Source: Candidatus Altimarinota bacterium
Lineage (GTDB): Bacteria > Patescibacteriota > Gracilibacteria > BD1-5 > UBA6164
Length of the DNA stretch: 51,179 nucleotides
Assembly: GCA_020631575.1 (NCBI GenBank)
Contig: JAHDGX010000002.1
Span: forward strand, 1-51,179
Reading direction: 5' to 3'
Program-made: the position numbers and the translations under genes
Shown: positions 4,456 through 47,451 of the stretch, piece by piece
How positions within the stretch are numbered: the stretch's first letter is position 1
How the letters are laid out: the number at the start of each line of letters is the position of its first letter
The notes under the pieces: model-generated
Database searches by the model: none
Seen by the model: the letters and a program-made list of their open reading frames with translations, nothing else
Told to the model about the DNA's origin: nothing

Positions 4456-7014
4456 TTATTTCTTTTGGGTATCAAGCATTTCTTCGTCTTCGCTTTCACG
4501 AATAATACTTGCTCTCACTATCTCATCTGACTTATTTTTCAGCTTCGTAAGTATCACTCATTGTGTTACTCTTGAAGTTTTCCTAACTCATTTCAGATTA
4601 AGCCGTATAGTCTGACCAGCTTTTGATATAAGGAGTATATCACTCTCTTTTCTATCCTGCTCTGTGAGAATCTTCGCAGAAACAAGTTTTCCTGTTTTTG
4701 GAGTCACAGCCATTGCTTTTACTCAAGCCCCTCATCTTTTTTGGTTCCTATATTCTTCTATATCTGAGATTTTCCCAAGACCGTTTTTCGTAACGATAAA
4801 TACAAATTTATTATCATCTCATACTACTGCAACCTCTATAACATGATCATCTTTCTTGAGAGCAATTCATTTCACACCAGCTGCAGCTCTTCCCATTGCT
4901 CGAACATCTTCTTCATGAAATTGAATAGCTTTTCCTTCACGAGTTGCAATGAAAATACTATCATGTCCCGTTGTTGTTTTTACCCATTTAAGTTCGTCCC
5001 CTTCTTTTACCCCTACTACCTTGAGACCATTTGCTCTAATATTTCGTACTTGATCCATTTCAAGCTTTTTTACGATTCACATTCGAGAAACAAAGAAGAG
5101 ATATTTGTTTTCTTCTCTTGTTATATCAAGAATAGCTGAAATTTCTTCTCCTTTTTGAAGGTTGAGAAGATTCACAATCGCTTGCCCTTTTGCAATTCTC
5201 GTTGTTTCTGGAATCTCATAAGCTGGAAGAGTAAACACGCGTCCTTGACTCGTAAAGAATAAAAGATCTGCATGATTTGTAGTTGGAACTACGAGATAGA
5301 TTTCATCATCTTCTTTTGTTGCCGTGGTGATTCATTTTCCTCCTCGTCTTTGCGTTCTAAAAGCCGAAGATTTCAGTCTTTTTACGTAATTATTTTTTGT
5401 AAGAACGATTACTACATCCTCATTTGGTATAGTATCTTTTGCGTTAAATTCCCCAACCTTTCAGGCATTTACGGCTGTTCTTCTCTCATCACCAAATGAT
5501 TCATTTATCACATCAAGCTCTCCATCAATAATCGAGATGATTCTCTCTGGTTTTGCGAGAATATCCTCAAGATCAGCGATGAGAAGAAGTTTTTCTGCGA
5601 GTTCATCTTCTACTTTCTTTCTTTCAAGACCTGCTAGTTTTTGGAGTCTCATCTCTAGAATCGCGTCAGCTTGAAGCTGTGAGAGATCAAACTGAGACAT
5701 AAGGTTTACTCTCGCTTCGTCTCTTGTTTCACTTGCTCTGATGGTCTTAATAACTTCATCAATATGATCGAGGGCTTTTTTAAGTCCCTCTAGTATATGA
5801 GCTCTCGCTGCTGCTATTTTTAGTTCATACTGTGTTCTTCTCGTTACAACCTCTTTTCTGTGGTCGATAAACTCAAGAAGCATTTCTTTGAGGTTGTAAA
5901 GCTTTGGTTGTACTCATCTATCTCCAAGAGCAATCATGTTATACCCAAAACTTGTTTGAAGCTGAGTAAGCTTATAGAGTTGGTTAAGAACCTTCTTAGG
6001 AAAAGAATCTTTTTTGAGTTCTACGATCACTCTCACTCCATCATTGTTACTCGATTCATCACGAATATCTGAGATCCCAACTATTTTTTTATCTCTCACA
6101 AGATCAGCCATCTTTTCAATAAAAGTAGCCTTATTCATTCCGTATGGGACCTCTGAGATATGGATAAATTTTTTCCCTTTCTTTCCTTCTTCAATATTTG
6201 CCACTCATCTTACTACAACTGATCCTCGACCAGTAGAGTATGCTGTAAGAAGCGCTTCTTTATCGTAGACAATACCTCCTGTTGGAAAGTCTGGACCTTT
6301 GATAAATTCCATTAAATCCTCTACCGTTGTTTCTCCGACACTTGGATGGAGTAGTAAAAATTTTACAGCAGCAATAAGTTCTCCAAGATTATGAGGAGGA
6401 ATATTTGTAGCCATACCTACCGCAATACCCATAACTCAACTCATAAGAAGATTTGGAATGCGTGCCGGCATAACTGATGGCTCCTGACGAGTCGTATCAA
6501 AGTTATCTCTGAAGTCTACGGTTTCTTTTTCGATATCGCTGAGCATTTGCTCTGCAATCTTTGTCATTTTCGCTTCCGTATATCTGTAGGCTGCAGCTCC
6601 ATCACCATCCATAGAACCAAAGTTCCCTTGCCCATCTACGAGAGGGTATCTGAGGGAGAAATCCTGAGCCATACGAACCATTGCTTCATACACAGAGCTG
6701 TCACCATGTGGATGGTACTTACCGAGCACATCCCCGACAACAGTAGCAGATTTCCTATACTTCGCGCTTGGTCTGAGTCCCTGTTCATGCATAGAGTAGA
6801 GTATACGTCTATGAACTGGTTTAAAACCATCTCTTATATCTGGAAGAGCACGCGATACAATAACACTCATCGCATATTCCATATAACAGCTTTCCATCTC
6901 ATCTGAGATACTTCTTGCACTATCTCCGTCATAACTTACTCCTGTATCTATTGGGAGTGCTAGTTCATTGTTTTCTTCATTATCTTCTCCAGGTACATTT
7001 TCATTTTCGCTCAT
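4456..7014 (-). CDS. gyrA: DNA gyrase subunit A, 852 aa
   Basis: Five track fragments (7014, 6432, 6204, 5883, 5058) share one phase. Motifs: [40 protein letters not shown]. Stop is TAA at 4456-4458 after an acidic tail ([14 protein letters not shown]). Confidence 0.95.
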
Positions 7015-7132
7015 GTATTTTTAGCTAAAAAATAAAGTCGTGAACATCACGAAATATACCTAAAATATACTGAATATAGAGCGATAATCAAGGAAAATAC
7101 ACAGAAAGAATGGTAAAATAGTGTAAAGTAGT

Positions 7133-22348: not shown

Positions 22349-25300
22349 TTACCGTGCAACCTTTTGAGTTTCTAGATATTCTGATTTAAACTTCCCAACG
22401 AGTGGAGCAGTATCAGATAATAGTTTCGAACCAAAACTTACAATTGTACCTGGAGATAGTTGAGTTCATGTTTTCTCAATAAAGTATCTGTTATCAACAA
22501 GATTATCGATATCTCATGAGAGAGATCCATATACTACAAGTTGTTTTTCAGACTCGTCGGAGATAATATATCCTCCTCAAGCTGATGTAGGTATAGCAAT
22601 ATATGTTCCATCGAGTCTATCAACATCAGAAGCAATATTAATATTTCCTCCTTTCACTACAAATGCTACATTTCTATTTCCACTTACAATATCTTGCGTT
22701 AGATTCAGATCTCATCACTCTACGATATACGTTGTAGATTCCGTAAGTGTTGGGAGTGAACCAAGAGTGATGTTTTTCCCTTTAATAACAAATACATTTT
22801 TGAATCCATTATAGTTATCAAACTTATCATATCCACTTACAGTAGTGGTAGTAGGAGCCGTTTCAGTTGTAACTGAAGTTACATCATCTGTATACTCTGT
22901 TTTTTCATCTGCAACATCACTGATTACTACCATGTCTGTATTGTTCTCAGAATAACTTGATATTCATCCCGTACTTACTGAGGTCCCAACAAAGTTTTTG
23001 TTATCAGTATATCCTGAGATTCCTTGAGTAATCTTACTCACATCACCAGAAGTGTTAGATTTCACATATGAAGTTCCTCAACCAATTGTTACCACTGCAG
23101 GTTTTGCAACTCTCACATTAAGGTCTGCTGCAAAATATGCATTATATAGTTCCTCAATAGATCCATTATTATCAATATCATCTTTGATAGATGTAGTAAT
23201 TTTTGCTGATCCATAACTTTGTCCTGCTGGGATAGCGTTTTTATTTGAGATAAACTCTGGGTATACATACCTTGCAGTATCAGAAATAACTTGGTTATCA
23301 CTTACAGCTTTGTATACTCCATCACTTGTATCTTTTACTATGAAAAGTTTATTATATCCATAGAGCATTCTATTTTGCAAGTCAATACAAATTTCGTTTC
23401 CTGAAGCTTTATTTACAGAGTTATCACCATCAGTCTTTTTTACGCATAGTTTATCAAATGAATAATCATACTCTGATGTATTTTCGATGTATGGCCAAGC
23501 AGGTACTTTTGAAAGTACATTTTGATTGTGTCCAACTATGATGTCTTTCTCTGGTCCGAATTTGATTTCCCCACCTCTTGGAGTTGTAGAAATCTTAGGA
23601 TCAGGATTTCCAGATGAACTCCCCCCTGAACTTGAGCTCGTTGGCAATTTACATGTTGCACTACAAGCAAATCCTGGTTTACCATTGTCAGTTCCCATAT
23701 CACACTGTTCTCCTCTTTCTGGCTGCACAATACCATCACCACAAATAGGGTTTGTCTGGATTTGACATCTATCTTCTGTAATCCATTTATTGCTTCCTGA
23801 TGTTCCAATCTCATCTACCGAAAAAGTAGAGTCGACTGTTTTCTTTACGTAACACCTTGGGAATGGATCGCTACAAGAAAACTGCGCTGTTCTTGCCCCT
23901 GTAGTTTCTCTAATAAGAGCAGCACCAGTTTTTGGAGTAAGATATATATCGTCTCCTGTAGTTGCATCTGTTCCACATTTCATTGCGATTGATTGCACTC
24001 TATTATTTCCCCAACATGTATATGAGTTTCCAGGATTATCTATGATATCTGTACATCTCGCGGGTGATCAACTACTTGATGAAGATGATGAACTCGTTGG
24101 TGGAGTAACGTTAAGTGTTCTTTCACAGGTATTTGATGTAATAGTATCATTTACAAAACATTTAGCTGTATAAGTACCAATTGTACTCAGTGTTACTGTG
24201 CCAGTATTTTGGTTCAGAGTATTTACAATATTTCCTGCAGCATCTCTTACCTCAATTTTGTACGTACTTACATTAGTACCAGTACAAGTAAGTGTAGAAG
24301 TGAGAGTGCTTACGCTACTTGTTGGTGAAGCTGTAAGAGTGTTACATACAGCTACTACACCATTCTCAATGGTAATTGTTTCAATATCATGATCATCTTC
24401 ATCTCATCCGTCGTTACAACCTGCTGTAAGATCATTATCAACAAGGTTTGTTGTTTCACCATTTCCTCCTCTTACTCCATTTCCATTTGTATTATCTGGA
24501 TCACTATCACAGTCATCTCAGTCATCTCTGCTAATCTCAGCAAAGTTTGAAATACTTGCTGGGGCATTATCATCGATAGTAAATGTTATATCTAGATCAA
24601 CTGGCACTCCATTTGCTGGAAGGCTTGCTATAGTTCTCACTGCTGTAGAGCCTGATTGAGTCCAATTAGAATCATTAAGCGTAAGACCTGTAGGAATATA
24701 ATCTGTAATCTCTATGTTAGCTGCATCTATAGTACCTTGATTTACTACTCTTACTGTAAATGTTACGCTATCTCCTGTATTGAATGGTCCAGTAGATTTC
24801 AAAGTTTTTCTCAGAGCAAGATCATAAGCTGGTGTAATAACAGTAATTGTTTCAATATCATGATCATCTTCATCTCATCCGTCGTTACAACCTGCTGTAA
24901 GATCATTATCAACAAGGTTTGTTGTTTCACCATTTCCTCCTCTTACTCCATTTCCATTTGTATTATCTGGATCACTATCACAGTCATCTCAGTCATCTCT
25001 GCTAATCTCAGCAAAGTTTGAAATACTTGCTGGGGCATTATCATCGATAGTAAATGTTATATCTAGATCAACTGGCACTCCATTTGCTGGAAGGCTTGCT
25101 ATAGTTCTCACTGCTGTAGAGCCTGATTGAGTCCAATCAGAATCATTAAGCGTAAGACCTGTAGGAATATAATCTGTAATCTCAATATTAGAGGCATCTA
25201 TATTTCCTTGATTTACTACGGTTACTGTGAAAGTTACATCATCACCTTTAGTAAATGGTCATGCTGATTTGAGGGTCTTAATAAGTGCAAGATCATACAC

Positions 25301-26446
25301 CGGATCTGTTATAATAATTTCTTCAATATCATGGTCATCTTCATCTCCTCCATCAGTACAACCAGGCAATATTGCGTTATCAACAAGATTTGTTGTTTCA
25401 CCGTTTCACCCTCTGACTCCATTTCCATTTATATTGTCTGGATCACTATCACAATCATCCCCATCATCTCTGCTAATTTCAGCAAAATTCTGAATCACTC
25501 AAGTTGCGTCTGAATCAATAGTAAATGTAATAGGTAAACTTGTAGAAGAATCAGCAGCTAGAAATGGTATTACTCTAGTTGCTTTGTCTCACGATTGAAC
25601 CCATCAGCCATCAATAAGAGTAAGTCCATTTGGGATATAGTCTGTAATCTCTATATTATTCGCAGGAACATTTCATTGGTTTACAACGGTTATTGAGAAA
25701 GTAATATTTTCACCTGCTATAAATGGAGCCGCAGAATTTTGAGCCAAGGTTTTAAATAATGCAAGATCATATCTACTTTCAACACCACAAGTACTACTAC
25801 ATCCGTCACCTCCAACCGAATTACCATCATCACATGTTTCACCTTGATCCGTTTCTAATATCCCATCACCACAATATCGTAGCTCAATATTAAAACACTC
25901 ATTTTCATGAATCTCATAATCTTCAACTTTATAGTGTGGGTAAGTCTTTGTACTATGTGACCAAGCTCATGAATTGAAATTGTATTGGGTATAATTTTTC
26001 ACTCTAGTATTGGAACCATTTTGAGTAATTTTACCATGTTTAATGTTATACACAAACTGTAAATTTCTTTTTGAATTGTCTGTCGGTTTATGGAAAAAAC
26101 ACTGGGCACCAAATGCTACTACCCTAGTGTTATTTCCAGGGGCAACTTCGCTTTTTCTTTGCCAAGCATCAGAAGTTGTACATCATGAAACAAGGCTTGC
26201 ATCAGATCTCCAAAAAGATATCTTTGAAGTAGTAAGAGCTATATATCTATCTTCATCACTCCACATATCATCTATAAGATACCTATCAATTGTTTGTCAA
26301 TTTATATAGTATGATTTCTCTCTTAGTGCTCATGTACACTGGGCATCTCATAGCTTAGAAGATATTTCTTCTACAATTGCTGCCTGAGAGACAGAGGGGA
26401 TAAAAAATATACTTACTAGTATACTAAAGAGTACTATTCTTCTCAT
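22349..26446 (-). CDS. giant secreted repeat protein / putative adhesin, 1365 aa
   Basis: Track fragments ending at 22933, 23998 and 24802, plus the ATG at 26444-26446, share one phase. Signal peptide: [22 protein letters not shown]. There are two Myxococcus-type Cys-rich repeats ([29 protein letters not shown] and [21 protein letters not shown]...CSATC). Three 157-aa DUF11-like repeats follow (YDLAL.KT...VTFTV.VVNQG...[13 protein letters not shown]), each ending in an acidic [12 protein letters not shown]...DEDDHD module. The stop is TAA at 22349-22351. Confidence 0.85.
24380..25792 (-). repeat. 3 x 471-bp in-frame tandem repeat inside the adhesin gene
   Basis: The anchor tcaatatcat recurs at 24381, 24852 and 25323, a period of 471 nt (157 codons). 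Copies 1 and 2 are identical for about 286 nt (24381-24666 versus 24852-25137) and then diverge. Copy 3 is clearly diverged. Confidence 0.9.
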
Positions 26447-27807: not shown

Positions 27808-30800
27808 CTATTCCTCTCCATCATCTGGATCTGAAGGGGTTTCTTCTGATCATGTTCCAACCTCTTCTGATCCCGTACCTTCTGAACCTGTATCGTTAGG
27901 ATCTGTTTCTGTTCCAGTTCCTTCTGTCCCAGTTCCTTCCGTTCCAGTTCCTTCCGTTCCAGTTCCTTCCGTTCCAGTTCCTTCTGTCCCAGTTCCTTCC
28001 GTTCCAGTTCCTTCCGTTCCAGTTCCTTCCGTTCCAGTTCCTTCTGTCCCAGTTCCTTCACTTCCGGTTGAGTCGTTTTCCGATCCAGTTCATGCTGGCT
28101 CTGGCTCTGGAAGAGTTGTAATATCAGGATTTTTAACATCCGTTACGAGGTCACTCGATGTGTCATGAAACTGTGAAGTACAGAGTGCTCCAAGTACACC
28201 ACATGGAAGACCGTTTCTAAGGAAGTTATATCCTTCAGCTAATATTGGTGGAGCTCAGTTGAGTAATACAACTTTTTCTGATGGTCCACATCTAATAAGT
28301 CCTTGATCGTCTGCCATTCTAAGACCTCACTCAGTGTTTGTCGTAACAACTCCAAGATATCTATATGAGCTAAGTGTAAGAGCTTGTTGCCCTAGGTCTG
28401 AATTCATTCTCTCTTCAGCAGTAGCAAATTCTTGCATATCACTCACTTCTCCTGTCGTGGCATTATATATAGCGATTGTATATTTCCCTGTTTCTGGACT
28501 AATTCCTCACATAATAAATGTATTTTCTGACCTGTCTCATGTTTCTGCATGTTTTAGACCAAAAGAGATATCATCCATTGCCAAAAAGCTTGCTTCATTT
28601 TCACTCATAATTTCAGCATATTTATCTGGGTTTTCTCTTCTCACCTCATCCATAGCTCCTGAGAGCGTTTTAGCAGAAATATCTACTTCGGAATCAGTTG
28701 CAGCTTCAGCTTGAGCATCGTGATATGCAGTATAGTCAACAACACCCTGATTATCAGTATAATCAGAAATATCTGCAAGAGAATCTTTATACTCTCTGAG
28801 TTCTGTATACCATGATTCTTCCGTAAGACCTCCTGTTTGAGAATTTATATCGTAAATCCTATCAATAAGAGACCTACTTGCCTCAAGACTCATATTTCCT
28901 GACATGATTTCTCCCGAAAGTCATTCTCTATTTGCTCCTGAAGCAGAAAGTTCAAACCATCTTGATGTTACTGTCTCACTTCCTGTTAGTCTTGTTCCTT
29001 GATATACAGCCTCCGATGTTGATGAGCCATCAAAACTTACTAGTGCTCCCGTGTGGTCTGCAGTAAAACGCTCAGTGGTAATTGTTTGATAATCATTCAC
29101 AAAAGTTCTGTGAATATCTTTATGTATTCTTGGTCTTCCTCTAAGCCCATTATTAATCTCCCCTCTTACACCTGCTTGATCCACAACATCAGCATCAGGA
29201 TATCAAACTGATACACCAAGTATAGCTCCTAGGGCATTCATACCTGTATCCAATCCCCCCCTTACATTTGCGAGCTTAATAAGTTCTCCTATCTCAGCTG
29301 CTTTAGCAATATATGATGCATGGATAGTAGTTATTAGGTTGACCGTATTTGAATTTATGTCCAATTGTTCACCTGGTTGATCAGCAAATATATCACTACT
29401 CATTTTAATTACTGATATGAGCATATCTCCTGTAACTTGTGTAGATTCTAAATGTGATCCAGTATCACCAAAGTATGATAGTGCTTCTCTTAACTCTAGA
29501 ACTTGGGCTGCGTTCATGTTTCTCATTGATTCAATAAGTTCTCTCACTCATTGAGTGTCAGCTTCTATCATCTCTACAAGTTCTGTGTTTGCTCCACCAT
29601 TTGTAAGTTCATTTATATAAGCATCCAGTTCAGATTTCTGTGCAGCTTCGAGAGCTGCTTGAGCTTGACTTATCGCTTGTTGGTTTTGGTCTGCGGCATC
29701 TGTAGCAGCTACTGCTTCAGCTGTCTGTGCATTTACAATTCATCTTGCTTCTAAAACTGCTGTATCTGCAGCTTCATCATTTGTATTTGCTGTATCTTGT
29801 GCAGTAATAGCCAAATCAAGAGCTGTCTGAGCATCTGCTGCTGCTTTTCTTGCCGTATCTACTGCTGCTTGAGCTTGAGCTACTGCTGTATCTGCAGCTT
29901 CATCATTTGTATTTGCTGTATCTTGTGCAGTAATAGCCAAATCAAGAGCTGTCTGAGCATCTGCTGCTGCTTTTCTTGCCGTATCTACTGCTGCTTGAGC
30001 TTGAGCTACTGCTGTATCTGCAGCTTCATCATTTGTATTTGCTGTATCTTGTGCAGTAATAGCCAAATCAAGAGCTGTCTGAGCTGTAGATGCTCAAGAT
30101 TCTGAAGTTTTAAGAGCCACATATGCCTCAGCATGAGCAACTAAATCAACTGCAACACTCCCGTCAGAGTTTAATTTTCAAGTTACATAGTTTATAAGAT
30201 CTTGATTCGAGTCAAAATTTAATGCATCTAGATCAATAGCAGCATCTACTGTATTTCCCCAATTTGCTCATGAATAATTGATGGCTAATTTTCAATTTGA
30301 ACGTATGAATAATGGGTCAGATGCAACAATATTCCATGAACCAATTTGATCAGAAATCGCTTGCAAAAGTGCCTGTCTATTTCTGGCAGTTACAAGTGAG
30401 GCTTCAGGATCAGATAAATCTGACAAATAGTCATCAGAGTATCCAAATGCATCAAAAGCTGCTTGTGCTGTTGATTCGTTCATTCTTGCTTGAGAAGCAA
30501 TGGTTCTTGCTTGAAGAAGCTGCGTATTCGCTGAATCAAGAGCTTCTTGAGCCTGTGTAGCTTGAGTTGTTGCAAAAGTTAATGCTGCTTCTCGTACTGC
30601 AAATCTCTCATCGGCTGCTCCATCAACAGATTCCGCTCTTGCAAGTTCTGCATTTGCTGAATCAAGAGCTTCTTGAGCCTGTGTAGCTTGAGTTGTTGCA
30701 AAAGTTAATGCTGCTTCTCGTACTGCAAATCTCTCATCGGCTGCTCCATCAACAGATTCCGCTCTTGCAAGTTCTGCATTTGCTGAATCAAGAGCTTCTT

Positions 30801-31668
30801 GAGTTTCAGTCGCTCTTTTAGTAGCCGTATCTAGATCTCTTACAGCTTGTCCTGCCTCAAACGTTTCTCTCGCAGCTGCAACTCTTAGTGATTCATCTGA
30901 TCATTCTACAGCTTCTAACTTAGCTGCCGTATCATTCAAAGCACCTTGAGCTTCAGCAGTTTGAGCTGCAAGAGCTTCTGCTGCTTCGCTTTGTTTGTAT
31001 TCGTTGAATGCACTCGTTGAGCTTGATCCAATGGAACCTCTCGTTCCATTAGTATTATATCATAGGGCTGTAAGAGCGAGTTGAACAGCTACTCTCTCAT
31101 CTAAACTGAGAGCTTTTACCTCATCTATAGTGGCATATCCTGAAAGAAGTTCTTTTGCCTGCGATACTTCGAGTTCTCTTGCCTCTCTAGCTGCTTGAGC
31201 TTCAGCTATTTTATCTTTTAATACTGAGTTAGTCATTTGGATTAGGAGAGAGATTCTTCCTTGGTCAATTACACCTCCGTCATAATCACTCATTATTTCT
31301 TTGAGAACTCTTTTTGTACCATTTCAGATTCTACCATCTACCGTAATAGTTGATTTATCAGAAGCTTTCAAAAAGAGATTCATGATGAATTGAACAGTTT
31401 TTTGCTCTTTCATTGTTGGATTGTCTTTAGCGCTATCTGGAGTAACATCTCCAAGTTCAGCAGCAATTTCTCCAGCAATAGAAAGCTCTCACTCCATTTT
31501 AGCTAGAATAGCTTCCTGAGCTTCGGGAATACTGCTAAGAGCCTCAATGTCTGACATACTGATTTCTTTATCAGCAATTGCAGTATCTACAGCAGGAGTA
31601 TCCATTCCTTGGTAGTTCGCTACGGTAAGCATAAACAGTGTTCTATAGTTTCGTAGTAGTGTAAACAT
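27808..31668 (-). CDS. giant Ala-rich coiled-coil protein with PG-binding-like motif and (EGTGT)n tail, 1286 aa
   Basis: Six track fragments (31293, 30483, 30066, 29547, 29184, 28905) share one phase. The first ATG is at 31666-31668 and the stop is TAG at 27808-27810. The N-terminal TVDGRI[G]NGTKRVLKEI resembles the PG_binding DGxxGxxTxxAV motif. It has two families of 42-aa repeats, a globular region of about 450 aa with no motif I recognise, and a C-terminal GTEGTGTEGTGT tract. Confidence 0.8.
27905..28072 (-). repeat. 15-nt (5-codon) tandem repeat encoding (EGTGT)n with a 60-nt higher-order unit
   Basis: The unit gttccagttccttcc alternates with the gtcccagttccttct variant at every fourth unit. 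Only the Gly/Thr phase is continuous with the upstream 3.7-kb ORF. Confidence 0.9.
29757..30083 (-). repeat. 126-nt (42-codon) tandem repeat, about 2.6 copies
   Basis: The anchor gctgtatctgca recurs at 29759, 29885 and 30011. The repeat encodes AQTALDLAITAQDTANTNDEAADTAVAQAQAAVDTARKAAAD. Confidence 0.9.
30531..30803 (-). repeat. second 126-nt (42-codon) tandem repeat, about 2.2 copies
   Basis: The anchor ctgaatcaagagcttcttgag recurs at 30531, 30657 and 30783. The repeat encodes EALDSANAELARAESVDGAADERFAVREAALTFATTQATQAQ. Confidence 0.9.
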
Positions 31669-31851: not shown

Positions 31852-32535
31852 TTATCTATTTCTAAATTTTAGAAATCCGAATCCTAGCATAAGAGCTACA
31901 AATGCAAGAAGTAAATGTTCAGCTCCGGTTTCTGGAAGTCTTGGAGGTTGTGGTACTGATGGTGGAACTTCTCCTGCTCCTGAAGTGTATAGTACACACT
32001 CTCTATGTTGTAGCGTATCAGTAGATGGAGCTCCATCTGCTTCAATGTTATGTACTGCGATATCATATACTATCATCCCAACGTTTCCTCCGGCAGCAAC
32101 TGGGTTATTTGTGAGTTGGTAGGCACTTCCTACTGTAGATTCAATCCATTTTACACTACTACCTGCAGAAAGGACGTTTCAAAGTGACTCATCACTATAT
32201 AAGGCATCTAGATCTGAAGTGTATGTCCAAAAATCTACACTATCGCTTGCTGTAACTTCTGTCCATGAAGCTCCTCCGAGTGATACAATTCTTGGCATTT
32301 CTTGTTCTTCTTTGAATAATACCTGATCTGTTGTTCCATCATTATTCCAGATATCATCAAGAAGTCCTTTATTATCTCCTTGAGATACAGCTCCTCAAGT
32401 AAAACATTGATCACAACTATTTGCAGCGTAAACAGAGTCAGCACTACATGTTACTTCTTCATACGCAGCGTATGTGCTTGTTGTCATATAAGCAAGCATA
32501 ATCCCTGCTGCTATGATTTTTGAAAATGATTTCAT
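31852..32535 (-). CDS. LPXTG-type sortase-anchored surface protein, 227 aa
   Basis: Signal peptide: MKSFSKIIAAGIMLAYMTTSTYA. The C-terminus is PPRLPETGAEHLLLAFVALMLGFGFLKFRNR, i.e. LPETG, a hydrophobic segment and a basic tail. Confidence 0.8.
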
Positions 32536-34465: not shown

Positions 34466-36526
34466 TTATTGCCAAAATCACTCACACCCTTCTCTAGAAT
34501 TTGAAAATGGTCAATTAAGCCCAATAAATCCTGTCGTTATTGGTGTGTCATTCACAACACCAGAAGAAATGTCATTTCACCATGACGTAATGCTTCCATC
34601 TGGTTTTAATGCATGGTAACTTCATTTCGCAGAATAAATATTAATATATCCTGTATCAGTCGGTTCTCAAAGTCCTCCCATTGTATCACTTCACCAAGAT
34701 GCAATACTTCCATCTGCTTTCATTGCTGCGAATCAATGTTCTTGGGCATAAAACTTAACATATCAGTTATCAGTTGGCTCTCAGTCAGCCTGAGTTCACC
34801 ATGATGAAATAGAACCATCAGCTTTTACTGCCATCATTCCTCAATACGTAGAAAGTGCTTTTACATACCCTCCATCTGTAGGAGCATCATCTCGTAATGT
34901 AGCATTTGCTGAATATATCCATAGGGTTCCATCTGCTCGAATTCCAATAAATCAGAAAAAACCTCATATAAGATCTACGAATGTATCTGTTGGAAACTCA
35001 TCTCAGTAATAATACAGCTGTCACCATATATGAATAGTTCCATCATCTCTTAGAGCTCAAAAGGTATTCCCCGTACCTACTACCTTAGTAAATCATGATC
35101 CATATGAGGTAACGAAATTTCCATTTGGATCTAATATTCTTCCTCCATAAGTCGTGTTTCCCCATACATGAATACTCCCATCAGATTTTAAGGCTCAAAA
35201 GGCTCATCTAAAATTTGAAAATATTTCTACATATCAACTATCCGTAGGAGTGTTCAAATTCCCCCATCATGTATCTCACCACGACACAACTCTACCATCA
35301 GAATTAAGAGCCGTAAAGGCTCTTGCTGTTGCTACTACAGAAGTATAGCCACTATCTGTAGGTCCTCATACTCATCATCTTGCTGGGTCTCACCAGGTAG
35401 TAATAGATCCATCTGACTTCAGAGCTGCAAACGCTCACTGTGTTCATGAAACAGTAATATAACCATTATCTGTTGGGGCTCCTGTGACCTCATTATCCCC
35501 ATCTGATCACCATACTGTCATGGATCCATCTGGCTTAAGAGCAACAAAGTTTGCATATATTGTAAAAAGTTGAACATACCCGTTATCGCTAGGGGCTCCT
35601 ACTCCTCCATAAGTATCACTTCCCCATGATTCTATACTTCCATCTGTTTTTAACCCTGCTAGGGCTCTACTATTTCCATATGCATTATTTGCTGCAGATT
35701 CTATTGTATAATACGCATTTGAATCACCACAACTATACTGACCTATTGTTAAAGGTAGACTTGGTAGTGTAGGTCAATTATTTTGTATCCCTCATGGACA
35801 TCTCCCATCCTTATTTACATCGAAACACTGAAAAGCGTTATCTACCACTCTCCATCATTTTCATTTTCTCACTATAAGATCTCATAACTCAGAAAATGTA
35901 GCTCAAGTTCCCGTAACGTAATCTTCTCATGATAAATAAGAGGAGAGAACATAAGTATTTCCTATATCTGTAAGCTCAAGAGTATTTGAAGTAAACGCTA
36001 AATCTTCAAGTGGTAGATTTGTAGCTTGCTGGGTCATAATACCTAAAGATGTCCCAAATGTCCGAGGATACCTATCTTGATTATCTGAATGTACTGAAGG
36101 AAGCAGAGCTAGGCTACTCATTTCTTCTTCCATGAATGCCATAAACTGAAAGGTTTTTTTATTAGATCATAAAAAATAACTATAGTACGTATCATCTTTC
36201 GGGTCCTTAGTATTTTCATCCATTCATATAGTTTCTAGTACATCTTTTCCTATTTTTCCCTGAAATCATACGATTACTCAACTTGAAGTGATAGTAATAC
36301 TGTTATCTGGGAGAGGAAGTTTCTTTGAAGTTGCATATTGTTGAAAGGTTTCAACTGCCTTAGTGAGAGTTGCTATTCTTTTTGTATCCCTCGCTCACAC
36401 AAGATATCAGGTATAAGAAACAAAACCAATTGTTGAGATAATTCCAACAATTGTGATAACAACGATAAGCTCTACAAGTGTAAAAGCTCATTTTTTAGAA
36501 CCGTGAAAACGAAGAATATTATGCAT
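34466..36526 (-). CDS. type IV prepilin-like N-terminus fused to about 10 RCC1-like beta-propeller repeats, 686 aa
   Basis: The N-terminus MHNILRFHGSKK[G]AFTLVELIVVITIVGIIS is a class III (prepilin) signal. The C-terminal 450 aa carry about 10 repeats of the form ALK.DGSI..WG...GG.....P.D.GY. The start, track fragment 36142 and stop TAA 34466-34468 are all in phase. Confidence 0.8.
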
Positions 36527-37316: not shown

Positions 37317-38297
37317 TTACGAATTAACTATATCCTTCATGAGATCATCTACAATCTCAAGAGATGGAAATTCTCTCTCTTTCAGCTCCTGATTTTTATC
37401 AGAAATATTTTCACTTGTTACATCTACCCCTGTCTCAAGCTCATATATACCATAAAACCCATGAGTGAAATCTACATAGTGTCTCTCGTATACATACTTC
37501 TCACCATCAAGACGTATCACATTAAACTTAATTCATTTCTCTTTTACGATATCTCTACATGTATTCCAATAATACCATACATTCATTCTTTCTCACAAAT
37601 AATCTGTCAAAGTCTCACAGCTAATTTCTGGAAGAATCTCTTTTTTTACTTCAAAGCCTTTAATTTGCGTATAGGTGAAACTCTCTTCTCAGAGCATAAG
37701 AGGTTCTCCGTACTTGGACGAAGTAGGGAGGTCTATAGAAATCGTGTTATCTTCTGGTCCAACAAGTGTTGACTCGCTTCCAATTGTTTCTTTATTATTT
37801 TCGTCTAACACATTCAACACAATCTTTGTTTCTGAAATTTCTTTCCCAGCCCAAGCTCTAAATATATATTCGTTTTGACCAAAATCTAAGACCTGATTTT
37901 TTGATGAAGCAATATATTTAAATGTAGTATCTCCCGACTTAAATGCCTGGAGAGTATAATCATCATCTGGATATTTCGATGTTGGATTTGTAAATAAAAC
38001 CTGTATTTTATCTACCTGAATATTCGTAGTTCCGGAAATAATCACTTCTCCACTCGTAAGCTCCCTCTCAGAAATACTATCAAAAACGAGGTACGCTAAA
38101 GTATCTTGCGGCATAATTTGGATAAGAGAATTTGATTGCTGAGATTTTTTGTCTTCCGAAGCATCAGGCTGCGTGTCGTCTTGCTGAGAAACAGTATCTC
38201 CTAGAAGATCTTTTTTCGCTGCATCTATTTCTCCTCTGGATTGACCACATGAAGTAAGAACAAGGGTAAGGAGCATGATTCATAATATTTTTTTCAT
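37317..38297 (-). CDS. lipoprotein, hypothetical, 326 aa
   Basis: The N-terminus MKKIL[G]IMLLTLVLTSC carries a lipobox. Two same-phase fragments are joined through TGA. No motif recognised. Confidence 0.7.
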
Positions 38298-40397: not shown

Positions 40398-40631
40398 GTA
40401 TAATAGTTATACAAATAAAATATATTGAAAACTTTTTTATAGTCAGTTAGAATAGAATTCTGCAAGAAAACTAACACTACAACTTATAAAGTTTAGAAGT
40501 CATCCATAGTCTCTTTTAGAAACAACTATGAGCATAAAAATGCATATAACTTAATAGACTCTACAAATTACTCTCGGAAAATATTGAAATTCTCGACATG
40601 CTAATATGCCTTTTCTTATAATATATCATTA

Positions 40632-41540
40632 TTATATATCATCCTGTAGGTATTGCAAAAAGTTTTTTACGTCTACTGGTATTTTTGTGATATCCCAGTA
40701 ATAATTCTCTATAAGCTCAGTAGAATAGTCTTGTCATGTAAACTGATTTTTTTGAAAAACATAGTCTCACATAAAATTATACTTTTGCTTGAGCCTGAGG
40801 CTTCCTTGTGTCTTCTTTCTAAAGTCCTCGTTGTGTAGTACATAGTATAGATATGTTTCTGCAAAGTCTTCATACTGGTTCGTCATCGCGTAACCTGATA
40901 CAAAATCAGCCTGTACACTTCAAGGAGCGATCGTAGTAACGGAGTCCCAAGATATACCATAAAATTTACTACTTATATCTCAAAAAGCATTCCCAGGAAG
41001 AGAATAAATATCATAGTAATGAGCGAACTCATGAATGAGCACAGAGAGAAACTCACTATCCGTAAGTTTTTCAACACCATACATATGTATGTTTCATCAT
41101 TTCATCCTTCCTCTAGTCTCATGTGAGTTTCTATATAAATACACTCACAGATTTTGTATATGGGAAAGAATATCTTTTTTATAAAGAAACACCTCAACTA
41201 TTGGAACGTATGAGTATTCTATACTCTCTCTGAGTTTTGTTGGAATATACCTGAGAGATACTTTTCTTTTTTGGGCTCGAGAATACTTCTGACTGTATGA
41301 CTCATAGATAAGTTTTTTTATAGCAGCATCAACATCGTCTTGGGTTGTTCCAGTAAAACTTGCAAACTCCTCCTCTCCCGCAGGAAAACTATGAGAGTGT
41401 CAGTGTCACGAAAGTGTTGGTTCTAGATATTGTTCCTGATAATATGTGTCAGGAAAAAAAATCTCCTTTCACACAAAAAGTAAAAGTGTAAAAAGGAGGG
41501 TATAGGTCGTGACCAATAATATTTTACGTGATTTTCCCAT
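40632..41540 (-). CDS. membrane-anchored HExxH zinc-metallopeptidase-like protein, 302 aa
   Basis: N-terminal anchor: MGKSRKILLVTTYTLLFTLLLFV. LSVLIHEFAHYYD is the HExxH motif, with YEDFAETY downstream. Start, motif and stop were checked to be in one phase. Confidence 0.7.
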
Positions 41541-41549
41541 ACATATAGA

Positions 41550-41963
41550 TTATCAGCCTATGGAGAACATAACTTCTATAACGATTCTCACAATTCAAGA
41601 AGCTAATAAAAGTCCTAAAAACCCTAGCATCGACCACTTTACAATATCTTTTCATTTTTTAATTTTTTCATCTTCTCATACTGATATAGTCATCATGAGA
41701 GCACCATACACTATCGCTCATACTGCAAGAAGCCCCAGAAGCATAGAGAGTTGATTTGTCCAATATACCACTTTATTTTTTACCCCTCACTCTATAAGAC
41801 CATCTCAAGGATTCACAAGTGTAGAGTCTCATAAGCAGCCATCAAGTTCATAACCAATATCTCATCCATTATATTCACAATCTGCATGAATATGAGGACT
41901 GAAAATACTCAAAATACTTACTAAGACAGTAAGACTTACAAGAAGTGAAAATATTTTTTTCAT
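41550..41963 (-). CDS. VirB2/TrbC-like small membrane protein (pilin-like paralog A), 137 aa
   Basis: Walked codon by codon. It has a signal peptide (MKKIFSLLVSLTVLVSILSIFSPHIHA), then TM1 (LSMLLGLLAVGAIVYGALMM), a charged loop (SVGEDEKIKKGKD) and TM2 (MLGFLGLLLASGIV). Confidence 0.7.
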
Positions 41964-41971
41964 GATAAAAT

Positions 41972-42355
41972 TTATAATATATTAATTCCTGCAATAAATC
42001 GTACAAGAGCCCAAGCTGCAGCTACTGCAAATATCCCAATCGCTGCATAAATAAAACTGTTAAATGCTTTTTTGAGTTCTTCTGGATTTCAGCGAGCCAT
42101 AAGAAGTCTTCATCAGATGTATATGAACATACCAATAGCAAGAAGTGCCATAAGATTAAATATACTATCTTTTATAAATTCTAATATTACGTCGAGAAGT
42201 CTCTCTTCTGTTTCTCATGAAGTGATAACGCTCGTAGATCCAGCAGGAGTGATCTGACTTTTAAGGTCTTCTGATGATCTTGGGTCGAGGGCTTGAGTGA
42301 TGTTACTCAGGCTCATGTAGAGAGCTGTAATAGTTACGAAAATACATGCTTTCAT
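41972..42355 (-). CDS. VirB2/TrbC-like small membrane protein (paralog B), 127 aa
   Basis: Walked codon by codon. It has a signal peptide, then TM1 (LMALLAIGMFIYI), a charged loop (ARGNPEELKKAFN) and TM2 (AAIGIFAVAAAWALV). Its start codon overlaps the paralog C stop (TAATG). Confidence 0.7.
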
Positions 42356-42705
42356 TATATTCTAAAATTATTAAGTATTCCTATAATTGACCAAGCCGTA
42401 ACAGAGAGAAACACTCATACAAGTGCCCAAGTTATGATAGTCTTTGCTTTTTTTGTTTTTTCCTCTTCCCCACTTGAGATGATGTACATAATTCATCCTA
42501 TCATCACGGCAATAACTGCAAGTACTGCAACATACTGGATCATGAGTCATATAATTCAACCAATAATCCCATAGATTCCATCTTCTCCTGTTCCAGAAGC
42601 AGCGTCACAGCCAGGAAGTCAAGCGCAGCCAATATCTGGAGCGGCTCCATAAGCTGTTGCCGATAAGAGAAAAAATATAGTAGCTATAATAATTTTCATA
42701 AACAT
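42355..42705 (-). CDS. VirB2/TrbC-like small membrane protein (paralog C), 116 aa
   Basis: Signal peptide: MFMKIIIATIFFLLSATAYGA. It then has TM1 (IIGLMIQYVAVLAVIAVMI), a charged loop (SSGEEEKTKKAKT) and TM2 (ALVGVFLSVTAWSII). Confidence 0.7.
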
Positions 42706-42707
42706 TC

Positions 42708-43112
42708 TTAGTAAAGTAAGAGAGCAAAGAGTCGAACAATAACTCAAGCAGAAAGCGCAACAGCAAGAGCAATAATACCAGACATAAATATAGATTTTCA
42801 CTTAGAGAGAAATTCATCCTGACCATGATAGATAATCATATATCCTGCACCTATCGTCATGATAAATACAGCAAAAGCACCAAATACAATTATTAGTTTC
42901 TCAAGTACTGTCAGGAGTACGTTTTGAACTGTTTCTCAGGCTCAGTCTCATATAAGACTCGTATTACCAGGAGTAAACGTTCCAACATGAATCTTAAAAG
43001 TCTCATCTTTTATATCTCCACTAGATTCCCCATCAGAGAATATATAAGGACTATAAAGTGATGAGATTAGTACAGTGAAAAAGAGAAATACACTCGAAAA
43101 TAAGCTTTTCAT
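42708..43112 (-). CDS. VirB2/TrbC-like small membrane protein (paralog D), 134 aa
   Basis: Walked codon by codon. Signal peptide: MKSLFSSVFLFFTVLISSLYS. It then has TM1 (LIIVFGAFAVFIMTIGAGYMI), a charged loop (HGQDEFLSKGKS) and TM2 (SGIIALAVALSAGVIV). The Leu-rich track ORF 42605-42826 is in a different phase. Confidence 0.7.
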
Positions 43113-43217
43113 GATTGTGGGGGTGGAAAATAACTAAAAAAATAATAACTATTATTTTTCAAAAGACAAAAAAATATTATCCTTGGAGTAGAAATTAACT
43201 TTGCCTTACTTAAAAGT

Positions 43218-44354
43218 ATGAAAATTGCCATTCTCCATGAAATGCTGATAAAGAAATGAGGTGCTGAGAAAGTAGTCTCTGAGCTTATAAATATTTTTCC
43301 TAAGGCTGATCTTTTCACACTCATATATGATGAAAAAAAAGTCTGAAATATATTTCCAAAAAATACTATAGCTCCTGAATGTTTCAAGCTTCTCAGTCAA
43401 AAGGTCTATAACATTACAAAGAGGCAGCGTCTCTGCCTCCCATTTATGGCCCGCTCAGTTGAAGCCCTGGATTTTTCATCGTATGATAGAGTAATTGTCA
43501 GCTCAAGCTGATTTGCTCATGGCCTAAAAACAGTAAAAGACACAAAAACAATCATATATTATCACGCTCCTGCAAGGTATATGTGGGACTGGGCACATGA
43601 ATATAGACGTGACATCAACATGCTCAGGTGAATTCGATGATTTCTCTATGGAAGATTTATGAAAAATCTCAGAATATGGGATTATAACGCATCTACTCGT
43701 AATGATACTTTGCTGGCCAATAGCGCTACAACTCAAAAAAGAATATATAAATACTTTAGAAGAGAAAGCGATATTGTGTTTCCTCCTATTGAAACTCAAA
43801 GATTCTCACAAACTCTGAGTAATTACTCTCCAAAAGAAATATTTTTCTCAAAGCCCTACTACATAATATTATCAGCCCTGACAGAGTTTAAAAAAATAGA
43901 TATTGCAGTAGAGGCTTTTGCAAAAATACCTGAAGTGAACCTCCTCATAATCTGAGAGGGAGAATACAGAAAAACTCTTGAAGAGCTCAGCTGAAATGCT
44001 GCTAATATACGCTTTAGTTGAGCGCAATACTGAGATGATCTCGTACATCTCGTACAAAACTCGCTGGGACTTATATTTCCTGGGGAAGAAGATTTTGGTA
44101 TTGTTCCTATAGAGATTATGGCTGCAGGAAAGCCTGTTTTTGCCCTAAATAAGTGAGGTCTTACAGAGACTGTTATAGCCTGAAAAACTGGTGATTTTTT
44201 TCACAACGAGGACTGAAGTGATTTCATACAAGAGTTTCAAGTCTTTCACAAAAATAATACTAAAAATCAGTACTCTCCAAAAGACTGTTACACGCAAGCT
44301 GTGAAATATGATACATGAATATTCAAAAAGAAAATTCAAAAACACATAAAATAA
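43218..44354 (+). CDS. GT4-family glycosyltransferase, 378 aa
   Basis: In phase with track ORF 43659-43955. The motif GEEDFGIVPIEIMAAGKPVFALNK[GG]LTETV is the retaining GT-B (E..G...lEAmA.G.PV) signature. Confidence 0.8.
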
Positions 44355-44426
44355 ATCACTCATCTCTTCTTTGACTTGGAGGGATTTTTATGTATATTAA
44401 AAAAAATATTTTTCTTTCGTATATAT

Positions 44427-45767
44427 ATGAAAATTCTTGCTCCTATTTTGTTCTTCCTCTTGCCACTCCACGCATTTATTATAACAGTACTTAAGTGTAA
44501 ATATTCAGTTGATACCAACATCCTGAGGTTCTGGAAAGAAATTATGCTTTCAATCATGTGAATCATCATTCTCTATCAAGTCTACAGATCAGGGTCATCT
44601 CTGAGAAAACTCTACAAAAACAATACGCTTCTCTGGCTCATCAGTATCTTTATTGCTTGCTGCTGAGTATATATGTACTTCCCGTTTTTTGAACTTAAAG
44701 CAGCCTCAGTACTTGGGTTTCGTTATGATGCCTTCTTCTTTATTGCAATGATCGTATGACTTTATAGTGGCCTTATGTGAGAACTTCGTTCGCTTGTAAA
44801 AGTCCTATTTATATCAACTTTTTGAATCCTCATAATATTTCTCCCATGGTATCTTTTCGGAGATATTTCATCTCTCGCTGTAAAGTTTGGATACTCAGCT
44901 GAAGTATCAACCTATACTGCCAATAGTTGTATCAGTTTTGCCCAAAACGTAGATGGACAACATAGGTTTCAATGAACATTTGGATGACCAATTCGTTTCT
45001 CTGTATTCCTAACTATAGTGGGATCTCTCTTCGCGGGATGGCTTCTCTCATCGACACGCTTTACAAGAAAACAACAATACCTACTCGCTACTTGATTTGC
45101 AACTCTTATTCTTCCTGCTATATTCTTCTCGTATTCTAAAACATCTATTCTCTGAGCCCTCTTTGCAGCGTGAATATTTGTACTACTTGCGTACAAATAC
45201 ATACACAAAAAGAAAATAACTCGGCAATTTTATACCTACATGGCTGCTGGATTTACGACCCCCATCATTCTGGTTGCTCTCTTCAAGTGGGAATTATTCC
45301 TGCATTTATGAGCAGTACTCAATAGACTCGAAAATCTTTGAAAATCTGTGGAAATGTTCTTCTATAATCCATACTGATATGGCTTATGAATAGCTGGCCC
45401 AGCAAGTCAGATAGGAAACTCCATTGAGTCCGCTTGATCATGGCAGGTTGCAACTGCAACGGTTCTTAGAGTTCATAAGTTTCTTCCTGAAAACTGGTAC
45501 GTGCAAATAGCTCTTGAAATGTGAATCATAGGTATAAGTCTTTTTATGAGCCTGATTATTCTCATCGGATATAGACTGATACATCTCATTAAAAACAAGC
45601 GTGATTACATGAGCGTCTGAATTGCAACCGCATACTTCGCACTCTGTTTTATGGCTCTCTTCACGCACGCATTTGAAGAAGCTGCTACCAGTTATATACT
45701 CTTTTTCATTATTGGTATCGTACTTGCTGAAAGCATGAAAATAGAGCAAACAAAAGCAAAAAACTAG
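44427..45767 (+). CDS. Wzy_C / O-antigen-ligase-family polytopic membrane protein, 446 aa
   Basis: About 10 TM segments are present. The motif RVHKFLPENWYVQIALEM[G]II[G] resembles the conserved (H/N)N.yLq.l.e.GiiG loop of the O-antigen ligase / Wzy_C family. An alternative TTG start lies at 44376. Confidence 0.7.
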
Positions 45768-45768
45768 T

Positions 45769-47451
45769 ATGACCTACAAAATATCATATACATTCATTGT
45801 GGGGTTAATATGTATCCTAGGATCTCTCTATACAAGCTTCTTTTTTCATCTTAATGATATTATAAAAGTAGCAGATAGTTTTGCCTATTTTCAGATGAGT
45901 CACTTTCTTCAAAGCCTTTCTATAGAATGATTTTGAAATGGGTGGTTTGGATTTCTCTACTCCCTTCCTATTGCTGCAGTAAACTACGTTATTCACTCTG
46001 AAGTACTCGCAGCAAGAATCGTTAATATAATTCTTCTTAATATTTCAGCGCTCTTACTCTGGAAGGTATCAAGAAAAATTCTCTCCCAAAACTGGTCATA
46101 TATTGTGCTCATACTCTTTTTTATACACCCCACACTTCTCCATTTCCGAATTCATATACTGTCTGAAAATATATATATTCCTCTCTTTTTATCACTCTTT
46201 CTTTCGGTTATTATTTTTATAGAAAATATTCATTCTTATAAGAAGAGTGTCTCACAGACTATACTCATTGCGTGTCTTATCTGACTCATGTATCTTACCA
46301 GAGCAGAGGCATTTATATATATTGGTTCTATTGGAATAATCGCTTTATCTCTTATGATCAAGTGATCCATAGATATAAAGAAATTTCTCTCTCTCGGAGT
46401 TGTATTTTTTATAACATTTTTCTTGTTCATATCTCCATATTTGTTTTTTCTTCACTCTCTCACATGAGAATGGTGACTCACAAATAAATGAGCCTCAAAT
46501 CTCCGGCAAGCAGAACTCAGAGGGCAAGAGCAAATGGATGATAGTTGATTTGAAAGAGCTGTAGCAGAGCTCACAAGTGATAATAAACATCTCATTGCTG
46601 GTTTTGCAGGATGAATGCCATATAGTAAGCCTAGTATTGAGTGATCCCTTAAAAACTTTATATTAAAAGATCCTACATGATTTATTGATAGGATTCTCTG
46701 AAATCAAAAAAAACTATACACCACAAATTTTTCAGAGCTCTTTCTTGGTAAATCCCCTCAACTCTATCATTCAAATGACACAAGGTTCTCGCACCTGGGC
46801 TTTTTAGTAATAGTTCTTATTCCTATCTTCATATTTTTGCATGGTTTGCGAGAGCTTTATAAAAAACAAAAAAAATACTTTGGAATACTACTAAGTTTCT
46901 TTATTCCAGCATGTTTATTTTTCACACTCTTCTTTACGCTCAATAGATACTTTTTGATATTCATACCTTTTCTCATACTCATTTTTTGTTATGGAGCCAG
47001 CCAGCGAAATTCATTTAAATACACGAGTATTCTCAGCTGAGTAAGTATGATCTGTTATATTTCTCTCTTACTTCTTTCTACCTTTGTGTACTACAATACT
47101 GAATCACCAAAAGATAGTTATTATGAGCTCAAAAAAGAGGCTGGAGTATGGCTTTTTCAAAACATAGAAAATCCTCAAGAGTTGAAAATTATGGAACGAT
47201 TTCCTATCGTGACCTATTATTCTGATTCTAAAATACGCTACATTACCCCCTATACTTCCAATATAGAAGATATTTATGAATATGGCTTACACAATGATAT
47301 TGATATTCTCATTGCCGACAGTATGGACTTTCAAACCTATAGGCCAGAACTCAGTTATATCCTCTCTAAGACTCCAGATAACTTTAAACTGCTCAAAGAA
47401 TTTACAAACAGTAAAGAGCAGAAAGTTATTTTGTACAAACTCAAAAAATAA
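45769..47451 (+). CDS. GT-C-type (ArnT/PMT-like) membrane glycosyltransferase, 560 aa
   Basis: The ATG follows the previous stop by 1 nt. The frame is in phase with track ORFs 46837 and 47047. It has a multi-TM N-terminal two-thirds and a soluble C-terminal domain. The functional assignment rests on architecture only. Confidence 0.55.

Follow-up and report, generated by a model that had tools for sequence, protein, structure and literature searches.

A conserved unit of four PF18895 pilin-like genes and a putative membrane zincin in code-25 Gracilibacteria

The contig JAHDGX010000002.1 of a Candidatus Altimarinota bacterium (assembly GCA_020631575.1; Gracilibacteria, BD1-5), analysed here over its whole length of 51,179 nt (the window), carries on its minus strand five consecutive genes, four of them encoding small pilin-like membrane proteins (paralogs A to D) and the fifth (E) a putative membrane-anchored zinc peptidase, or zincin, of the Peptidase_Mx1 family (Mx1). 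The small proteins belong to a single family, their genes follow a fixed order with operon-tight spacing, the catalytic residues of the peptidase are strictly conserved, and no ATPase of a type IV secretion system (T4SS) lies nearby. The interpretation held here with moderate confidence is that of a chromosomal, origin-proximal five-gene operon typical of Gracilibacteria using genetic code 25, whose four non-interchangeable PF18895 pilins would form a heteromeric envelope structure and whose single-pass membrane zincin, predicted to face outward, would process them. Tandem VirB2-like arrays distant from the ATPase are already known in Patescibacteria, and it is the fixed four-paralog set, the co-operonic zincin and the separation from any secretion motor that have not been described before.

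The five-gene unit and its conservation

Under translation table 11 the interval dissolves into short overlapping open reading frames (ORFs) on both strands, and since the flanking RNase J-like gene is equally fragmented, a recoded stop codon was suspected. Across the window, ORFs of 100 aa or more hold 7,839 residues when TGA is taken as a stop and 31,244 when it is read through, and recoding of TAG or TAA yields far less. Alignments from 80 related loci place in-frame TGA at conserved glycine columns of RNase J (895 of 924), the Mx1 peptidase (105 of 137) and PyrH (163 of 193), and never at tryptophan columns, so that the window is to be read in code 25 (Gracilibacteria/SR1; TGA = Gly). Table-11 calls or database translations of the contig are fragmented or show W where G belongs, as in the stored copies P0001, P0209 and P0218. 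Read in code 25, the unit and the spacers at its two ends are as follows.

42708-43112, minus strand: pilin paralog A, 134 aa (code-25 translation)
42355-42705, minus strand: pilin paralog B, 116 aa (code-25 translation)
41972-42355, minus strand: pilin paralog C, 127 aa (code-25 translation)
41550-41963, minus strand: pilin paralog D, 137 aa (code-25 translation)
40632-41540, minus strand: E, putative membrane-anchored zincin (Peptidase_Mx1), 302 aa, with the motif HEFAH
43113-43217, no strand: divergent intergenic region of 105 nt separating the pilin A and GT1 glycosyltransferase genes, where the promoter of the unit is presumed to lie
40398-40631, no strand: spacer of 234 nt between the unit and the RNase J gene (40397-38394), 3' boundary of the putative operon

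Successive genes are separated by 2 nt (A/B), a 1-nt overlap (B/C), 8 nt (C/D) and 9 nt (D/E), and in this code the four lengths, the junctions and the inter-helix loops listed in a preliminary description of the locus are exact. The spacer between pilin A and GT1 has a median length of 108 nt in 39 loci. A scan for promoters and terminators returned matches no commoner than the shuffled expectation, and because promoter-like matches occur at this chance frequency the promoter of the unit is placed by position only.

Membership of a T4SS pilin family, which the preliminary description had proposed from topology, is borne out by Pfam family PF18895 (T4SS_pilin; gathering cut-off 26.6 bits), which scores 29.4, 52.6 and 31.6 bits with B, C and D, respectively. 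Protein A falls below the cut-off (17.5 bits) and is nevertheless a clear paralog, being 33% identical to D over 140 aa, matched by a hidden Markov model (HMM) built from the family, and represented by a positional ortholog in related loci. The stored database copy of C (P0209) is itself annotated PF18895, as are several of the genes upstream of the peptidase in public annotation of related genomes; NCBI names several matched orthologs 'pilin', and one ortholog cluster bears both PF18895 and PF04956. When profiles of the four types were searched against a collection of 5.8 billion proteins, 227 clusters were recovered, and all named ones came from Candidatus Gracilibacteria. Chance does not account for four paralogs of one family lying side by side, an arrangement that recurs in dozens of genomes.

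This recurrence was followed in a scan of one genome per GTDB species, which found 121 relatives and returned 80 loci, with genes called in code 25 and classified with our own HMMs; four further loci were looked up individually. In all of the latter, two of which lie on chromosomes of 1.3-1.5 Mb, three or four small genes stand directly upstream of the peptidase gene. Pilin genes were counted in the 73 loci, drawn from both sets, that offer at least 2.2 kb of upstream sequence: directly upstream of Mx1 and on the same strand there are four in 58 loci, three in 10, one in two and none in three, and pilin genes almost never occur elsewhere in the ±8 kb flanks. The order A-B-C-D is preserved in 60 of 81 loci, with type-specific HMMs separating the best from the second-best type by a median margin of 92 bits. 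Within a type, orthologs are 39-46% identical across species, comparable values being 40% for Mx1 and 39% for a neighbouring Wzy_C-like protein, and paralogs within this genome share 23-34% of their residues. The fixed order, the type-specific signatures and this gap between ortholog and paralog identity argue that A to D are an old, fixed set with distinct roles, rather than the product of recent amplification or antigenic drift.

Adjacency alone would be a weak argument for functional coupling, because the entire neighbourhood is syntenic in the lineage (PMT_2, Wzy_C, GT1, A to D, Mx1, RNase J, a 342-aa protein, PyrH, L34, RnpA, YidC). Spacing is more telling. Median gaps are 8 nt (A to B), 7 nt (B to C), 9 nt (C to D) and 6 nt (D to Mx1), and 83-99% of them measure 30 nt or less; the gap from Mx1 to RNase J, with a median of 244 nt, is that short in none of 61 loci. 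The junction between pilins and Mx1 (at least three pilins directly upstream) is also the best kept in the region, occurring in 64 of 69 species-level loci (93%), so that the linkage of pilin array and HExxH peptidase in the preliminary description extends to related genomes; the corresponding figures are 61 of 72 for Mx1 followed by RNase J, 34 of 58 for RNase J followed by the next gene, and 39 of 60 for GT1 facing the pilins. In OZ245768.1 (loci L004 and L056) the outer neighbours have changed and the five genes are still together. Tight gaps, the best-kept junction and a unit that stays intact where its outer neighbours differ thus support a coupling of pilins and Mx1 at the operon level, as judged from gene arrangement.

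Departures from this arrangement fall into two groups. A clade represented by L030, L040 and L052 has the Mx1-RNase J pair, with catalytic residues intact, and no adjacent pilins; L055 and L058 retain only pilin D before Mx1-RNase J and have an extra pilin after RNase J. Since the members of each group are nearest relatives, these are two evolutionary events. In L030 (4597-7476) and L040 (4684-7551) a secreted protein of about 955 aa occupies the place of the four pilin genes.

Beyond the code-25 lineage the zincin family is wider than the operon. Some 130 close homologs of E are known, from Gracilibacteria wherever the source is named, and an exhaustive profile search put the wider family at 167 representatives under a threshold of E<=1e-30 and at 755 under one of E<=1e-10. 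Of six loci of distant relatives, apparently in the standard code, one has a PF18895 pilin upstream at a distance of about 0.9 kb, four have none, and one lies on a contig too short to tell. The absence of adjacent pilins from four of the five informative loci indicates that the tight operon is specific to the code-25 lineage. The positive case (L091, GC content 47%), with a single PF18895 pilin at 4673-5116 and the zincin at 6001-7032, hints that the association of pilin and zincin may be older than this lineage.

No VirB4, VirD4 (type IV coupling protein), VirB6 or other T4SS component was detected by Pfam among the proteins of the 51-kb window, in agreement with the preliminary description; in the related genomes VirB4, VirD4 and VirB6 are likewise missing within ±8 kb, and neither a T4SS ATPase nor any recurrent large P-loop ATPase lies at that distance in the 80 loci. 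Relaxase, VirB4 and integrase genes are absent from the locus, whose setting is one of housekeeping genes and not of an integrative and conjugative element (ICE).

The four pilin types and the zincin

Hydropathy profiles bear out the shared architecture first described for the small proteins: each carries a hydrophobic, signal-like stretch at its N-terminus and, further on, a pair of long hydrophobic helices joined by a loop that turns from acidic to basic. Beyond this common plan every type from A to D has a conserved ectodomain signature and a loop sequence of its own, and B and D contain cysteine pairs. The features assigned to each type are listed below.

Residues 1-22 of A, minus strand: signal-like segment (hydropathy)
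42966-42998, minus strand: conserved N-terminal motif F.I......PG of A, residues 39-49 (type-A consensus)
Residues about 62-95 and about 106-134 of A, minus strand: helix 1 and helix 2 (hydropathy)
42795-42824, minus strand: loop GQDEFLSKGK of A (translation)
Residues 1-21 of B, minus strand: signal-like segment (hydropathy)
42607-42627, minus strand: conserved cysteine loop CAGLPGC of B (P..nC.GLPGC kept in 59 orthologs)
42442-42474, minus strand: hairpin of B with loop SGEEEKTKKAK (translation)
42062-42091, minus strand: loop ARGNPEELKKAF of C, in the hairpin that follows a signal-like segment and a variable ectodomain (ARGNpEEFKKa conserved)
41835-41879, minus strand: conserved Cys-Cys loop of D, residues 29-43, after a signal-like segment (ortholog alignment)
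41784-41819, minus strand: LVNPGDGLIEGG in D
41649-41678, minus strand: hairpin of D with loop GEDEKIKKGK (translation)

The start of the C ectodomain is conserved in a form resembling [LI][KR]D..P. In D the signature is C-x13-C plus LV, and C27 and C40 are invariant in 29 orthologs.

An AlphaFold2 model of an NCBI ortholog of D (P0137; mean predicted local distance difference test score, pLDDT, 78.9) consists of a signal-peptide helix, a short helix within the conserved Cys-Cys loop, and an alpha-hairpin formed by residues 55-91 and 96-134. Compared by Foldseek with 350,542 PDB chains, its best match is the conjugation pilus of Aeropyrum pernix (8dfu; probability 0.91, target template-modelling (TM) score 0.62, E-value 0.94), a structural likeness that is only suggestive; for pilin and zincin models alike, no PDB match reached E<=1e-3. 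Assignment to type IV (PilA-type) or Flp pilins was considered and rejected, as a prepilin motif is missing and none of the four proteins matches N_methyl (PF07963); the same Pfam library does recognise a genuine N_methyl protein, encoded at 34466-36526 of the window.

The fifth gene, in which the preliminary description saw a membrane-anchored HExxH peptidase, encodes a protein that matches PF15890 (Peptidase_Mx1) with 39.7 bits (E-value 4.8e-10, cut-off 25.6) and, more weakly, Peptidase_Mx and M90. Its Pfam matches are confined to zincin families and include no S26 serine peptidase domain of the RP4 TraF type. The features of the predicted chain are an anchor, a linker and three conserved blocks of the catalytic domain.

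41469-41522, minus strand: N-terminal transmembrane anchor of E, residues 7-24 (helix at 2-28 in the AlphaFold2 model)
Residues about 39-62 of E, minus strand: disordered linker (AlphaFold2 model)
41010-41033, minus strand: HEFAHYYD, catalytic domain of E
40857-40907, minus strand: DFVSGYAMTNQYEDFAE, catalytic domain of E
40683-40703, minus strand: YYWDITK, catalytic domain of E

Residues H170, E171, H174, D177, E224, D225 and E228 are invariant in 50 homologs, together with a block DFVSGY-xTN-YEDxxE and with Y280, D283, T285 and K286. HExxHxxD is present in 83 of 83 orthologs, as is the YED-AE block (82 by the strict pattern and one as YEDMAE), and on these alignments the protein is a conserved putative HExxH zincin with its catalytic residues intact. 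The AlphaFold2 model, built on the database copy P0001 with W at the TGA positions, has a mean pLDDT of 85.2 and a compact catalytic domain above 90. Its sole notable Foldseek match in the PDB is anthrax lethal factor (probability 0.91, TM score 0.32, E-value 0.04), a weak similarity in keeping with a divergent gluzincin that lacks any close relative of solved structure. The sequence MGKSRK, which precedes the helix, predicts under the positive-inside rule that the catalytic domain should face outward.

Known pilin systems and competing readings

The nearest published parallel is the survey by Quinonero-Coronel et al. 2025 (PMC12102498), in which PF18895, PF04956 and the CONJScan profiles were run over 3,035 Patescibacteria genomes. 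VirB2-like pilins were found there in 1,948 VirB4-positive assemblies and lay near virB4 in 1,135, being away from it in about 40% of assemblies. The survey also recorded tandem pilin arrays, 441 in number and of 2-11 genes each, whose members are about 25% identical to one another. In Gracilibacteria the T4SS parts are generally dispersed, with TrsD and VirB3 homologs not near virB4 and VirB6 undetected (PMC12102498). The six-pilin array of Ca. Southlakia epibionticum ML1 is essential (Wang et al. 2023, PMC10633639; PMC12857230), and in the same organism essential peptidase and lysozyme genes lie beside virB4 (PMC12102498). The present unit shares with these arrays the Pfam family, the tandem divergent paralogs (about 25% identity there, 23-34% here), a size within the 2-11 range, a monoderm CPR (candidate phyla radiation) host, and a chromosomal position near origin-linked rpmH-rnpA-yidC. 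It differs in having four fixed orthologous types in constant order where the published arrays vary, in the co-operonic membrane zincin at its end, and in that virB4, trsD, virB3 and virB6 are not near. The words zinc and metallo have 0 occurrences in PMC12102498, and no mention of PF15890 or Peptidase_Mx1 was found in the literature searched. Papers on Gracilibacteria proteogenomics, the BD1-5 genome and Vampirococcus contain nothing specific on VirB genes or on these pilins. One of the alternatives in the preliminary description was an array uncoupled from its machine. This holds insofar as no T4SS ATPase is found in the window or within ±8 kb; detachment from virB4 is not surprising in itself, because T4SS parts are dispersed in Gracilibacteria and arrays away from virB4 have been published.

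Other systems resemble the unit in part. With TrbC/VirB2 (PF04956) the small proteins share a signal peptide, an alpha-hairpin and a charged inter-helix loop, and depart from it in having longer, type-specific mature N-terminal ectodomains and almost no C-terminal tail that could be cleaved for cyclisation. Pilin maturation in RP4 employs LepB and the serine peptidase TraF, whereas the linked enzyme here is a zincin and not an S26 peptidase. Proteins of the Mbov_0395 family (NF045849, pilin-like conjugal transfer), which belong to Mollicutes ICEs, are likewise small two-helix membrane proteins of monoderm conjugation; B, C and D score 31.1, 29.6 and 27.9 bits over nearly the whole 80-residue model, all below the 40-bit cut-off, and the present locus is not an ICE. 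The zincin has in common with Peptidase_Mx1, Peptidase_Mx and M90 (MtfA) enzymes the HExxH and a downstream acidic motif, along with a weak structural likeness to lethal factor and MtfA. It also scores 43.4 bits with TIGR04549 (substrate import-associated zinc metallohydrolase lipoprotein), below the cut-off of 75, and differs from these SusCD-associated lipoproteins of Bacteroidota by a transmembrane anchor in place of a lipobox cysteine and by linkage to pilins rather than to a TonB-dependent importer.

In the favoured reading the pilins would enter the membrane via Sec and YidC and lose their signal peptides. Each would then fold into an alpha-hairpin whose acidic/basic loop lies on the inside, the type-specific N-terminal ectodomain and the C-terminus both being exposed outside. 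Co-assembly of the four types would yield one heteromeric pilin-based envelope structure, which may be a short pilus, a conduit or a membrane platform, and which would serve the cell-to-cell lifestyle of the symbiont as the equivalent of the essential array of pilins in Saccharibacteria. Co-translated with them, the zincin would sit at the outer face of the membrane and most likely trim or process the pilin ectodomains during assembly, and any energising machinery, VirB4 or other, would, if present at all, have its genes in another part of the genome. That the zincin is the pilin maturation enzyme is plausible, and we infer it purely from topology and operon coupling.

Several observations weigh against this reading, some concerning the pilins and others the peptidase. 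With PF04956 (cut-off 27.9 bits) A reaches only 15.3 bits (E-value 0.024) and B 12.8 bits, and C and D have no match. Aligned by hhalign with five VirB2/TrbC proteins, the family places helix 1, loop and helix 2 in register over 61 columns at a probability of 4.3% (P 0.0095), which is not significant, the negative control, ATP synthase subunit c, giving 0.2% (P 0.27). The family profile retrieves no T4SS pilin from PDB sequences, only designed helical proteins. Direct homology to Gram-negative TrbC/VirB2 could therefore not be demonstrated from sequence or profile. As regards maturation, we know of no substrate for any enzyme of the Peptidase_Mx1 family; conservation of the ectodomain motifs suggests that the N-terminal regions are kept and not removed, and C-terminal tails are almost absent. 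The linkage is partly one of general synteny, as RNase J follows Mx1 in 61 of 72 loci, and the clade of L030, L040 and L052 retains an intact Mx1 without pilins beside it. In addition, Table S1 of PMC12102498 lists the complete 1.34-Mb genome GCA_004563595.2 (CP042461.1), which holds the full A-D and Mx1 unit (loci L003 and L038), under 'Presence of VirB4: No'.

The strongest competing explanation, though an unlikely one, makes the zincin an envelope- or host-directed hydrolase that is co-expressed with the pilins and is not their maturase. It might clear proteinaceous barriers at the contact site, in the manner of VirB1-type wall hydrolases or of the Saccharibacteria peptidase and lysozyme encoded by virB4, or it might digest host surface proteins for uptake. 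A peptidase domain that is predicted to be extracellular and tethered by a flexible linker would suit such a role. So would the closest curated models, which describe surface hydrolases tied to substrate import (TIGR04549, with a sub-threshold 43 bits), and the essential peptidase and lysozyme genes by virB4 in the ML1 strain. The retention of Mx1 without adjacent pilins in one clade and in four of the five informative standard-code loci points the same way, and the conserved ectodomain motifs argue against removal of those regions. Set against this, the 6-nt gap to D and the adjacency in 93% of loci suggest that pilins and zincin are produced stoichiometrically, which would be unusual for a general hydrolase, and Pfam detects no wall- or substrate-binding domain in the protein.

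Alternatively, hairpin proteins and zincin could form a T4SS-independent membrane complex for which the VirB2-like fold was recruited and VirB4 is not needed, a proposal we consider improbable. It draws on CP042461.1, listed as VirB4 'No' and holding the full unit, the genome paper of which leaves VirB genes unmentioned, on the lack of a T4SS ATPase within ±8 kb in 80 genomes, and on the failure to detect VirB6 in Gracilibacteria (PMC12102498). The VirB4 argument, however, depends on a single genome and on the HMM thresholds of other authors, the same table records other genomes of this class as VirB4-positive, and T4SS genes are scattered in the class. Somewhat more doubtful still is the stronger claim that a VirB2-like fold has been freed from the T4SS motor and that a fixed heterotetrameric pilin set is matured by the zincin into a VirB4-less surface structure; were it true, conjugation-type pilins would have an assembly route of a new kind, and Peptidase_Mx1 would have its first assigned function. 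The preliminary description had also allowed for small membrane toxins, and secreted membrane-active or bacteriocin-like peptides with the peptidase as processing or immunity enzyme would account for small, hydrophobic, signal-peptide-bearing proteins beside a protease. This reading was rejected on conservation and context, and we regard it as very improbable. Toxins are hard to reconcile with an origin-proximal operon, fixed and universally conserved, in a housekeeping setting, whose order and orthology extend across about 60 species with conservation like that of the Wzy_C-like and Mx1 genes, and whose products score above the pilin-family cut-off; transporter and immunity genes are absent, as is the turnover in copy number or sequence typical of toxin loci.

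Whether monoderm Patescibacteria build a VirB2-like pilus, and what part it plays in their host-dependent life, is an active question, the array being essential in the one species tested. The present lineage offers an unusually clean case: exactly four orthologous types in constant order suggest defined structural roles rather than antigenic variation, a single conserved zincin, predicted to be extracellular, would be translated along with them, and for at least one complete genome VirB4 was reported as absent. These features lead to predictions on stoichiometry, processing sites and VirB4 dependence, and they open a first way into the function of a peptidase family that is still uncharacterised.

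Genes around the unit

Upstream of the pilins and divergent from them lie three genes.

43218-47451, plus strand: GT1 glycosyltransferase, Wzy_C-family (O-antigen ligase/PglL-like) and PMT_2-family genes

Since pilin O-oligosaccharyltransferases are among the members of the Wzy_C family, glycosylation of the pilins is conceivable. Downstream of the zincin gene, on the same strand, follow genes for RNase J, a lipoprotein-like protein of 326 aa, PyrH, a giant type IV pilin-like protein, L34, RnpA, YidC, an LPXTG protein and giant surface proteins. The lipoprotein-like protein (37317-38297, minus strand), whose signal peptide ends in LTSC and which has no Pfam match, is found between RNase J and PyrH in 41 loci. 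The giant type IV (pseudo)pilin of 686 aa, encoded between PyrH and L34 (34466-36526, minus strand), joins a prepilin N-methylation motif (GAFTLVELIVV) to a beta-propeller of RCC1 repeats.

Further along, a secreted protein of 227 aa (31852-32535, minus strand) ends in LPETGAEH, a hydrophobic stretch and KFRNR, an LPXTG anchor of the sortase type; it has no Pfam match and stands just after YidC in 26 related loci. Beyond it is a giant surface protein of 1,286 aa (27808-31668, minus strand), without a Pfam match, with tandem repeats of about 45 aa and a C-terminal (GTEGT)n tract, in whose position CP042461.1 encodes a protein with PG_binding_1. A second giant surface protein, of 1,365 aa (22349-26446, minus strand), combines three DUF11/DUF7507/CARDB repeats with a cysteine-rich DUF4215 module.

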